From IMG/VR virus record IMGVR_UViG_2671180906_000008: a DNA stretch of 4,318 bases; one strand, written 5' to 3'. Below, one piece after another: positions 2,062-4,318 of this stretch. The notes under the pieces were generated by a model. It ran no database searches, was not told the DNA's origin, and saw only the letters and a list, made by a program, of their open reading frames with translations. This DNA comes from a virus (lineage: Duplodnaviria > Heunggongvirae > Uroviricota > Caudoviricetes). Position 1 is the stretch's first letter, and the number at the start of each line of letters is the position of its first letter. The position numbers and the translations under genes were made by a program.

Positions 2062-3051
2062 ATGAATATGACTAAAAACGCTTTCCAGTTTGGCATTGAG
2101 CCAGTACGCATCACCGATACCGACAACATTCAGGTCAATGAAGGTCTGCCGACTAACGCCGACCCTCAGGTCTATGCCCTCCAGTTAGCTAAGACTGTTA
2201 AGGCTATGCTGAACGGTGTACTTAAAGACGCTCAAGATAACATCCCGTTCCCTGTAGAAGTCCTGCCGACCCGTAACAGCTTACCGACTCCAATCATTGC
2301 TCACACTCTGGCTGACCGCTCTGTGCTGGTCCCTGTCCGTGGTGGTAAGCGACCTGAAGTTGTGACCGCTCCGTCTGGCACTGAAATCACCGTTGAGCCG
2401 ATTGAACAGGCGATCCTCGTGTCTCACCAAACAAAGCTTTGGGACCAGAAGTCGACCACTGGTTTCACTCAGGGGACGCTCCAGCAGGACGCACTGAACA
2501 TCTGCGATAACGTGATTCGTACCATTAACTCTAAGATGGTTGACGTGCTGGAGTCCTCAAAGCTGCTGAAGACCGTAGAACTTCCGGCCCTGACTGGTAG
2601 CCTGACCGCTAAGGCTGACGCTATCATGGATGCCCTGTACGAGAACACGGAGTCTTCTTTCGGTTCTGAGGTTTCTGACTACGGCATTATCGCCCATGAG
2701 TCACACCTCAAGGCTCTCTCCCGTCTGGCTGCTAAGCAGGGCTTCGGTGGTGAAGACGCTATCGTCGATATGCTGGGGACTGACGTCGCCTATTACAACG
2801 GTGAAGACCGTGGCGTGTTCATGATGGCTAAGCGTTTTACGGCTCTGAGCTTCGGTTGCTTCCGTCACGATGGCGAGAGCATTACTGTGGTCCTTTCACG
2901 TGATGGAGACTCCCAGTCTCACGACCTTGAGATTCTCGGCAAGGTGTTTGTTGTAGCTGAAGCTGCTACGACCATCAAGATGGGTACTGGCTCGGCTACT
3001 GCTGTCCTGCCTGTAGTCAAACGCCTGAGCTTCACTAAAGAAGCTAACTAA
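2062..3051 (+). CDS. Hypothetical protein, 329 aa, likely highly expressed; possible virion structural protein by context only
   Basis: AAGGAGA (2046-2052) 10 nt before ATG 2062. Strong major-codon bias (cgt, ggt, gct, ctg, ccg, aac, ttc, tac). Hairpin plus T-tract terminator immediately downstream. No family recognised by eye. Confidence 0.8.
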   Translation: MNMTKNAFQFGIEPVRITDTDNIQVNEGLPTNADPQVYALQLAKTVKAMLNGVLKDAQDNIPFPVEVLPTRNSLPTPIIAHTLADRSVLVPVRGGKRPEVVTAPSGTEITVEPIEQAILVSHQTKLWDQKSTTGFTQGTLQQDALNICDNVIRTINSKMVDVLESSKLLKTVELPALTGSLTAKADAIMDALYENTESSFGSEVSDYGIIAHESHLKALSRLAAKQGFGGEDAIVDMLGTDVAYYNGEDRGVFMMAKRFTALSFGCFRHDGESITVVLSRDGDSQSHDLEILGKVFVVAEAATTIKMGTGSATAVLPVVKRLSFTKEAN

Positions 3052-3065
3052 CAATAACGACTATT

Positions 3066-3102
3066 GGTCAGACTTCCGAACTGGATGTCTGGCCTTTATT
3101 TT
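3066..3102 (+). terminator. Intrinsic (factor-independent) terminator downstream of the 329-aa ORF
   Basis: GGTCAGAC (3066-3073) pairs with GTCTGGCC (3087-3094) with one G.U pair; inner TCC/GGA pairs extend the stem; 5-nt loop gaact; followed by TTTATTTT (3095-3102). Starts 15 nt after the stop codon. Confidence 0.6.
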
Positions 3103-3146
3103 GTACTAGTAATCTAGTTTGTGAATACAGAAAGTAGGAGGGCCAA

Positions 3147-3221
3147 ATGGACCTACACAAAGTCTATCTCGTGGTCTTCCTGCTAAAGCTGGGACTGGTG
3201 GTCTGGCTATGGGCTATTAGA
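3147..3221 (+). CDS. Very short ORF (24 codons) behind a consensus ribosome-binding site; possibly a truncated gene start or leader peptide
   Basis: AGGAGG (3136-3141) 5 nt before ATG 3147. Reads MDLHKVYLVVFPAKAGTGGLAMGY then TAG 3219-3221. Too short to call a protein confidently. Confidence 0.2.
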
Positions 3222-3724
3222 CGATGAGTTTTGACTGAAAAATGTGAGACCTCATCTAATATAAAGAGCGAGCCAAAAGCCCCCATAGCCTGACCTGAGC
3301 CAGACCAAAAGGGCCGGGTAGTCAGACCGTGAGTTCTATTCCTTTAGAGGGAATATTACGTGCTTCAAGTCTTGACCTTCTATCTCTAAATGTGTGACTA
3401 TCACTACAACCAACTGGATTCACCTGTCTTTAAGAAACAATAGGTTAGCTGGTTGTCTTCGATTTGTCGTAGGCTCCCTTCGCCCGCTCCAATTTATCTT
3501 CACCTGATCAATCTGCCATTTTTGCTGTATCTGATTTTCTATATTATCTTAATTCAATCACTTCAGGCTTTTCGCAATCGCTGTAACACTTCCCCATTTT
3601 TTTGTAAATAAAAAGCGTTTACGCAATGCAATCCTTTTGTAACAACTCAGGTAAAATACCTTATTTTCAAGTTGTTGAATAAGTGGTTATCTACGCTTTT
3701 AACAAACGATTGATGGATTATTTT

Positions 3725-4276
3725 ATGAAAGGGAAATCTGCATTAACTCTTCTGCTCGCTGGTATATTTTCGTGCGGCACATGCCAGGCGACAGAGGCAG
3801 AAGTGACAAGCGAATCTGTATTTAACATTCTTAATTCCAGGGGGGCAGCAACAGATAAAAGTTATTTATCGTTAAATCCAGATAAGTATCCTAATTATCG
3901 TCTTCTGATTCACTCAGCCAAATTAAAAAATGAAATAAAGAGTCACTATACCAAAGACGAAACTCAAGGATTGCTAACATTAACAGAAAACACACGAAAG
4001 TTAACGTTGACGGAGAAACCCTGGGGAACGTTTATTCTTGCTTCTACTTTCGAAGATGACAAAACAGCGGCAGAAACCCACTATGATGCTGTCTGGCTGA
4101 GGGATAGTTTATGGGGCTATATGGCATTAGTATCAGACCAAGGAAATAGTGTAGCCGCAAAAAAGGTTCTGCTCACCCTGTGGGGTTATATGTCTACGCC
4201 CGACCAGATTAAGCGGATGCAGGACATCATTAGCAACCCAAAACGACTGGATGGAATTCTGATCCTACCCACGTAA
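3725..4276 (+). CDS. Secreted protein with N-terminal signal peptide and a GH15-like (glucoamylase/trehalase-type) WxRDS motif; ends at an in-frame TAA, possibly truncated or a pseudogene
   Basis: ATG 3725 gives MKGKSALTLLLAGIFSCGTCQA|TEAE, a classic n-h-c signal peptide. In-frame alternative starts at GTG 3683 and ATG 3713. AVWLRDSLWGYMAL at 4088-4129 resembles the GH15 WTRDS region. Visibly AT-richer with different codon usage than 384-3051. Frame stays open after the stop to the window end. Confidence 0.55.
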   Translation: MKGKSALTLLLAGIFSCGTCQATEAEVTSESVFNILNSRGAATDKSYLSLNPDKYPNYRLLIHSAKLKNEIKSHYTKDETQGLLTLTENTRKLTLTEKPWGTFILASTFEDDKTAAETHYDAVWLRDSLWGYMALVSDQGNSVAAKKVLLTLWGYMSTPDQIKRMQDIISNPKRLDGILILPT

Positions 4277-4318
4277 TATGGACACAGGCCTAAGCGAGGT
4301 TCTGGTTTTCAAATTGTT

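Follow-up and report, generated by a model that had tools for sequence, protein, structure and literature searches.

A predicted HK97-fold capsid protein encoded by small tRNA-Gly-integrated islands with T7-type promoters

What does a 329-amino-acid open reading frame (ORF) with the look of an abundantly expressed phage gene encode, and what kind of element carries it? The ORF lies at positions 2062 to 3051 of a 4,318-nucleotide stretch of DNA recorded as a member of the Caudoviricetes (IMG/VR record IMGVR_UViG_2671180906_000008), the whole of which we call the window. A sequence-only reading of the window had compared the surroundings of the ORF to those of the major capsid gene of T7-like phages and had proposed profile searches, structure-based searches and structure prediction to look for an HK97-like capsid fold. 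Here we report that the gene is not from a phage, but is the last gene of a 6.1–6.4-kb island integrated at tRNA-Gly, and that its product is predicted to have the HK97 fold. The reading that we favor, with a probability of roughly 55%, is that the ORF belongs to a "T7 island", a small integrative element most likely parasitizing T7-like phages, and specifies its major capsid protein.

Results

The 329-amino-acid protein is predicted to adopt the HK97 capsid fold

The protein belongs to no Pfam, PHROG, NCBIfam or PADLOC family and has no sequence match in the Protein Data Bank (PDB), and the core of 38 members of its own family matched no curated capsid family in Pfam, PHROG or NCBIfam. A word-indexed search returned just 32 relatives, none less than 70% identical and, where the source was named, all from Escherichia, Shigella, Citrobacter or Rouxiella; an exhaustive profile search with a hidden Markov model against 1.84 billion representatives returned 64 proteins, approximately 30 of which are full-length and 20–42% identical. 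With an alignment of 38 sequences, AlphaFold2 produced a model with a predicted local distance difference test score (pLDDT) of 79.8 and a predicted template modeling score of 0.73. The order of elements in this model (an N-terminal helix, a long beta-hairpin at residues 108–127, a 28-residue helix at 137–164, then a mixed alpha/beta part with long strands) is that of an HK97-type capsid protein, a fold characterized by an N-arm, E-loop hairpin, spine helix, and P and A domains.

Comparison of the model with the PDB using Foldseek gave 231 matches at E ≤ 1e-3, the best 50 of which were all phage capsid or encapsulin shell proteins, with the LME-1 capsid at the top (2.6e-9). Among the best 50 matches in BFVD, every named entry was an HK97-fold head protein, while 14 were nameless and 3 were listed as "uncharacterized protein". 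The structure prediction supports the earlier idea of a capsid protein. On the strength of the model we consider it very probable that the 329-amino-acid protein has the HK97 capsid fold.

One member of the family carries a C-terminal Big_2 immunoglobulin-like (Ig-like) domain; domains of this type are often found on decorated phage capsid proteins. The numerous PHROG tail and Ig matches of the family were traced to this single member, and a weak PHROG "head decoration" match (E 0.021) was discarded since it was not reproduced across the family. Homology to the T7-like capsid protein gp10 was not detected: hhalign of the family profile against the capsid protein of Escherichia phage ST31 gave a probability of 0.2%, and tblastn of the capsid family against 50,697 phage records gave no match.

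The capsid gene is the last gene of an island integrated at tRNA-Gly

In the intact copy of the island at locus L001 (E. coli CFSAN064035, NZ_CP031134, 2679374–2685764), tRNA-Gly (L001:8919-8992; the sole match in a scan of Rfam) is followed by a gene for a 543-amino-acid tyrosine integrase, a 219-amino-acid DUF4145 gene that overlaps the integrase gene, approximately 900 bp of non-coding DNA, a gene for a Rha-family regulator, a 58-amino-acid ORF, a 163-amino-acid ORF, the 329-amino-acid gene, a terminator and a non-coding tail of 440 bp. The 3′ end of tRNA-Gly recurs as a 17-nt direct repeat (TCCCTTCGCCCGCTCCA) that bounds 6374 bp in L001. Other copies measure 6327 and 6132 bp, and intact islands stay within 6.1–6.4 kb. 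The integrase (536–543 amino acids; Pfam Phage_integrase, E 3.1e-19) is encoded upstream of the promoters described below and outside the window. The element amounts to six ORFs, namely integrase, cargo, Rha, 58 amino acids, 163 amino acids and capsid, and no gene for an RNA polymerase, portal, terminase or tail is found among them. The island lacks essential virion and packaging genes and would, by that measure, depend on a helper.

Distant islands have the same build, with an integrase, one to three small ORFs, an ORF of 127–165 amino acids and a capsid homologue that is 25–42% identical. A larger relative of at least 10 kb (L004:1193-11749) has four T7-type promoters and a 527-amino-acid capsid homologue, and its extra genes include ones with Phage_T7_GP04, HNH_3 and ParE-like domains.

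The capsid gene is present in 309 of 5426 complete Escherichia coli genomes, in which every copy is chromosomal and annotated "hypothetical protein". The window itself is 95.6% identical to a region found in 39 complete E. coli genomes, beside ygeQ and the ETT2 cluster, and its capsid protein is 100% identical in Shigella flexneri SFBU1023 and E. coli ECMA0423. S. flexneri SFBU1023 carries two islands of the family at different sites (L008 and L010), the capsid proteins of which are 92% and 100% identical to that of the window. At L008 the integrase region is disrupted, an integrase-type ORF being followed by transposase-like ORFs; the same integrase type is intact in L002, beside dmsC. Contigs of 6.4–6.8 kb with homologues were considered as excised circles and ruled out. 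L089 contains the tRNA-Gly end and both attachment repeats, L090 has a 16-nt repeat near both ends, so that both are integrated, and L088 is a chromosomal contig that begins just upstream of the gene.

Island promoters match those of T7-like phages

The non-coding stretch of L001 contains three T7-type promoters, AAACCCACACTATAGGGG, GACTAAACTATCACTATAGGGG and GACTAAACTATCACTATAGGGA, at 11406, 11436 and 11995. Across the 243 kb of all loci fetched through the capsid protein, the motif CACT[AG]TAG[GA][GA] was matched 34 times on the strand that carries the gene and once on the opposite one, against a chance expectation that we put, by our own arithmetic, at approximately 2 per strand. In oriented loci with a known gene position these sites lie upstream of the capsid gene. 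All related loci have 2–5 T7-type promoters, and the island contains no ORF for a cognate RNA polymerase. A consensus scan found no sigma-70-like promoter on the + strand anywhere in the window.

An exact 16-mer, AACTATCACTATAGGG, recurs in viral contigs of 39–40 kb, among them that of Escherichia phage ST31 (Kayfunavirus, K1F-like). ST31 has ten such promoters, and the one for its own capsid gene reads GGACTAAACTATCACTATAGGGAGACCA; island promoters are identical to ST31 promoters over 21–22 nt. A second promoter type, AACCCACACTATAGGG, matches Escherichia phage SRT7, which has at least 11 copies in its genome, and a third, ACCCTCACTATAGGGA, matches Cronobacter phage GW1, Shigella phage SFP21B and Citrobacter phages SH4/SH5. 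Since each island pairs two promoter specificities in tandem, with the SRT7-type or GW1-type beside the Kayfunavirus-type (L001:11406-11456, L009:6469-7075, L013:6480-7104), the arrangement suggests that helpers of more than one lineage can elicit a response from the island. Promoters of distant islands read TAAACCCCGACTATAGAGAG in L085, AAAAACCC[CT]CACTCTAAGG in L087 (59% GC) and TTCCTACCACTATAGGGAGA in L004.

These promoters bear on the T7-like layout that the sequence-only reading had perceived. An operon behind T7-type promoters is indeed present, but the gene does not reside in a T7-like phage and has no detectable sequence homology to gp10. The resemblance to T7 gene 10 also fails in that there is no promoter directly before the gene, which is the distal member of a co-directional operon of approximately 3 kb.

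A conserved partner gene lies directly upstream of the capsid gene

Every island examined has, directly upstream of its capsid gene, a homologue of the 163-amino-acid ORF; these homologues are 127–165 amino acids long, and those of the distant islands are 22–30% identical. The partner is conserved from end to end, with a ratio of non-synonymous to synonymous substitution rates (dN/dS) of 0.05–0.28, and its codon adaptation index (CAI) is the second highest in the element. Its family profile matches an "uncharacterized protein" of solved structure (5EUR; PDB 5eur_A, E 3.3e-19), and the family gives weak matches to Pfam DUF6971. A small N-terminal domain is followed by a long charged region that is probably helical. 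Given its place before the capsid gene and its conservation together with that gene, the partner is a candidate scaffolding or assembly protein.

The capsid gene is under purifying selection and carries expression signals

The capsid gene and the signals around it are as follows (window coordinates).

2062–3051, + strand: predicted HK97-fold major capsid protein gene (ATG at 2062, stop at 3051; 329 amino acids, 35.5 kDa, isoelectric point 5.1), from the ORF call and structure prediction
2046–2052, + strand: ribosome-binding site AAGGAGA, 9 nt before the ATG at 2062
2006–2030, + strand: conserved RNA hairpin, GGTCCCTGAC-loop-GTTAGGGACT, within the intergenic leader that separates the 163-amino-acid gene from the capsid gene (centroid structure)
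3066–3103, + strand: transcription terminator formed by a hairpin and T-run, from a folding test

The ORF and its AAGGAGA site are as first described, and the block that contains the site, AGGAGATT[A/G]ATTAT[A/T/C]ATG, is almost unchanged across eight related islands. In the same eight islands the stem of the leader hairpin is kept and its loop differs; by analogy with the RNase III sites of T7, this hairpin may be an element that processes or stabilizes the RNA. The terminator directly after the ORF that had been noticed by eye stands up to folding. An internal mismatch separates 8 pairs from 3 further ones in its hairpin (3066–3094), after which comes TTTATTTTG; the segment of 61 nt has a folding energy of -19.7 kcal/mol compared to -9.3 ± 2.3 in shuffled sequences (z = -4.5), and 0 of 200 shuffles were as stable. 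A simple consensus scan overlooked this terminator because of the mismatch in the stem. A hairpin and T-run are found 3′ of the homologous gene in most related islands, with differing stem sequences. In some islands a small glycine-rich ORF of approximately 80 amino acids (MGKSISKGF...) takes the place of the terminator 3′ of the capsid gene (L008:9990 onward, L009:9990 onward, L090:5844-6086).

With Sharp-Li weights, the capsid gene has a CAI of 0.46, the top value in the element, compared to 0.22–0.40 for the other island genes, 0.11–0.19 for the off-frames and 0.62 for the capsid gene of phage ST31. The gene thus has a genuine codon bias that no other gene of the element matches, but a moderate one; to call it strong, as had been done, was an overstatement, because 0.46 is far under the value for the ST31 gene. 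CAI values fall from capsid to partner to the rest of the island, and the same gradient is found in the phage. Against eight homologues the capsid gene has a dN/dS of 0.08–0.20. It is a real gene with expression signals and is under purifying selection.

The islands have a variable cargo slot that can hold RAZR

The DUF4145 gene that lies between the integrase gene and the promoters in the intact island (L001:10751-11410) is a full-length match to the defense gene PD-T7-4 in PADLOC (E 1.3e-102). Full-length PD-T7-4 matches are also found in L007 and L011, and L013 and L089 carry the gene as judged by sequence or Pfam annotation. PD-T7-4 has been renamed RAZR, an abortive-infection ribonuclease (RNase) that assembles around, and is activated by, the portal rings of T7 and T3 (PMC13017515). 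The preprint that reported the discovery of PD-T7-4 notes that the family overlaps an integrase gene, as it does in L001; the word "satellite" is absent from the RAZR paper (PMC13017515). Because PD-T7-4 matches sit in this slot in several islands, at least some RAZR genes are cargo of T7 islands.

The slot, though often taken by RAZR, is variable. The genome from which the window comes has an unrelated 139-amino-acid ORF there, and unrelated ORFs of 122–148 amino acids with no match in Pfam or PADLOC occupy it at L010:4588-5007, L090:2097-2465, L008:6300-6668 and L009:5879-6325. These ORFs could be undescribed defense genes. As for a suicide RNase that senses portals in an element that would need the portal of a helper, one possibility is that it acts only against T7-like phages that are not helpers.

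The island copy in the window is damaged

The other features of the window, several of which lie outside the island, are listed below.

1–58, no strand assigned: terminal part of an IS911-family insertion sequence (IS) that breaks up the island and does not belong to it; the homologous L010:5760-7050 matches "IS3-like element IS911 family transposase" (96.8%)
59–70, + strand: CTATAGGGACCA, left over from the third T7-type promoter and covering about -5 to +7
384–1130, + strand: Rha-family regulator or antirepressor, 248 amino acids, first gene of the phage-promoter operon (Pfam Phage_pRha, E 1.5e-18; PHROG 10324 "anti-repressor Ant", E 2.6e-62)
1132–1308, + strand: 58-amino-acid ORF with no family match, present in L001 too
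1428–1978, + strand: 163-amino-acid partner gene, candidate scaffolding or assembly protein, broken by a run of 122 N bases (1446–1567)
3104–3474, no strand assigned: conserved non-coding island tail of 370 bp, approximately 85% identical between island subtypes
3475–3491, no strand assigned: right attachment-site repeat TCCCTTCGCCCGCTCCA, the 17-nt direct repeat that copies the 3′ end of tRNA-Gly
3725–4259, + strand: 5′ part of the host gene ygeQ, not part of the island (annotated "ygeQ / glycoside hydrolase family protein")

The window begins to resemble the intact island at about position 53. Where the intact island reads GACTAAACTATCACTATAGGGACCA (L001:11995-12018), the window reads CCACTTCA up to the junction and CTATAGGGACCA after it, IS911 having replaced the specificity region of the third promoter (-17 to -6). 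The two upstream promoters have been shifted by approximately 1.25 kb and lie beyond the insertion sequence. Because IS911 destroyed the third promoter and displaced the other two, the copy of the island in the window may be impaired. The reading frame of the partner gene is also broken here, the 122 N bases at 1446–1567 standing for 63 real bases in L010; the gene is intact in L010, L005 and L001. At the other end, an IS3 element (99.5%) interrupts ygeQ from 4260, just to the right of the island (window 4260–4318).

The position held by Rha is variable, and other islands have KilA-N-like proteins there. The tail, which includes a 14-nt inverted repeat (L001:15075-15088 and 15157-15170), is conserved beyond what is seen at synonymous sites, being approximately 85% identical although the adjoining capsid gene has a synonymous substitution rate of 0.39–0.53. 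It is likely that the tail is an integrase-binding arm of the attachment site, possibly together with other cis-acting sites.

Discussion

We infer from these features that the island has the life cycle of a satellite. Without a matching T7-like phage the operon would stay silent; once such a phage enters the cell, the RNA polymerase of the phage would transcribe it. The capsid protein, with the 163-amino-acid protein serving as its assembly or scaffolding partner, would then build small shells around the portal of the helper, and the terminase and tail of the helper would package and deliver the 6.1–6.4-kb island at the expense of the helper, after which the integrase would insert the delivered island at tRNA-Gly. 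A packaged element that has cis-acting sites would be in keeping with the narrow range of island sizes and with the conserved non-coding tail. In T7 itself, two phage promoters together make up the primary replication origin, and a plasmid with an origin of this kind is amplified during infection; it is therefore conceivable that the island replicates from its tandem promoters, which may double as a T7-type origin. More tentatively still, and at odds that we would put somewhat below even, the islands may be the first satellites of virulent T7-group phages and a minimal capsid-forming kind, in which a capsid protein and one partner are combined with the polymerase of the helper (engaged through promoters matched to at least two lineages) and with its portal, terminase and tail, the approximately 6-kb genome is carried in small heads, and many islands have RAZR as cargo.

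Several observations weigh against the reading that we favor. The island has no portal gene, and a foreign capsid protein would need to co-assemble with a T7-like portal. Neither excised circles nor virion-derived copies were found among the contigs examined. Promoters are the sole DNA that the island shares with the candidate helper ST31, and neither blastn nor exact 13-mers, which did not exceed chance, revealed a likeness of packaging sites. The predicted fold depends on the 38-sequence alignment, AlphaFold2 having given a pLDDT of 34.6 with 15 close homologues. Finally, the partner has no sequence similarity to the ST31 scaffold, and its proposed role is read from gene order and position and from co-conservation.

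An unlikely, though not far-fetched, alternative is that the island interferes with phages and is itself never packaged. The capsid homologue and its partner would act as a decoy that poisons assembly of phage heads, through sequestration of portal or scaffold or through dead-end shells, and the host population would be protected. Expression triggered by infection and the presence of defense cargo agree with such a role, but the integrase, the attachment sites and the 6.1–6.4-kb size limit are explained less well by it than by a transmissible element. Interference may also coexist with packaging, as the capsid-remodeling proteins of known satellites do both together.

There is very little to recommend the view that the gene is an inert leftover of a degraded prophage, despite the insertion sequences that flank and interrupt the copy in the window and the uniform annotation of database copies as "hypothetical protein". 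A leftover would not be expected to show the dN/dS values found for the capsid gene (0.08–0.20) and its partner (0.05–0.28), the conserved ribosome-binding site, leader hairpin and terminator, the presence in 309 of 5426 complete E. coli genomes, or the same minimal architecture in distant hosts (25–42% protein identity) behind promoters matched to different phages. Least probable of all is an encapsulin-like nanocompartment that encloses the 163-amino-acid protein as cargo and has no part in DNA packaging, given that neither protein matches encapsulin or any other Pfam family, that no enzyme or ferritin-like domain is seen in the upstream protein, that the genes belong to an island with an integrase and are preceded by promoters for a phage polymerase but by no host promoter, and that a Big_2 Ig-like domain is present in one capsid homologue.

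Few virulent phages have been studied as thoroughly as T7 and its relatives, which are also widely used in phage therapy. If the islands do form their own small capsids on the machinery of T7-like helpers, they would represent a new and very small satellite design, would account for the T7-type promoters in approximately 6% of complete E. coli genomes, and would give the RAZR/PD-T7-4 defense gene a genomic home and a possible biological rationale, linking an immune mechanism that portal rings set off to the way of life of a parasite of phages. They would also offer a two-gene system in which to study the interaction of a T7-type portal with an HK97-fold protein of foreign origin. A widespread family of "hypothetical proteins" is in any case assigned a function as predicted capsid proteins.

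Comparison with known systems

In 2006 Chen and Schneider are said to have described "T7 islands" as enterobacterial islands of 4–13 kb with two or three tandem T7-like promoters and no RNA polymerase gene. These islands reportedly have an upstream tyrosine integrase gene, direct repeats of 17–24 bp and, downstream, two to five genes with no assigned function, and are reported to have been proposed as satellites of T7-like phages. All of these defining features are present here, namely tandem promoters with no polymerase gene, an upstream integrase, 17-nt repeats and a size of 6.1–6.4 kb. Relative to the description reported from 2006, the predicted capsid fold, the conserved partner and the matching of promoters with phage genera of the present day would be additions, and the RAZR connection is of later date. 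Beyond the 2006 citation, our literature search found no follow-up on T7 islands, no satellite of a T7-like phage and no island capsid gene, and as far as we found T7 islands have been described neither with a capsid identity for their last gene or a conserved partner for it, nor with an assignment to living helper genera or a connection to RAZR.

The likeness to gene 10 of T7-like phages, as represented by ST31, is one of organization. The two proteins are similar in length (329 versus 347 amino acids) and isoelectric point and have the same predicted fold class; both genes have a leader with AGGAGA, an AT-rich spacer and ATG, are followed by a hairpin-T terminator, are preceded by an assembly gene (a candidate one in the island; the order is that of T7 genes 9 and 10), and have the top CAI of their own genome. 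They differ in that there is no detectable sequence homology between them and no promoter directly upstream in the island, and the island partner is about half the size of the ST31 scaffold and unrelated to it in sequence. Encapsulins differ from the island protein in other ways, since the latter has no match to their sequence families and no recognizable cargo enzyme and occurs in a mobile element with phage promoters.

Capsid-forming phage-inducible chromosomal islands (cf-PICIs) are larger, have a full head module (portal, head-tail connectors and a terminase subunit) and take only tails from temperate helpers. The island described here has only a capsid gene and one partner and, because it is without a full head module, is not a cf-PICI (e.g. 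EcCI2, PDB 9gyi). It also uses promoters for a phage RNA polymerase, and its candidate helpers are virulent T7-like phages. Other satellite proteins, such as Sid of P4, CpmAB and Ccm of Staphylococcus aureus pathogenicity islands (SaPIs) and TcaP of PLEs (elements that resemble phage-inducible chromosomal islands), remodel shells that are made of the capsid protein of the helper, whereas the island protein is a full-length, predicted stand-alone major capsid protein with a partner of its own.

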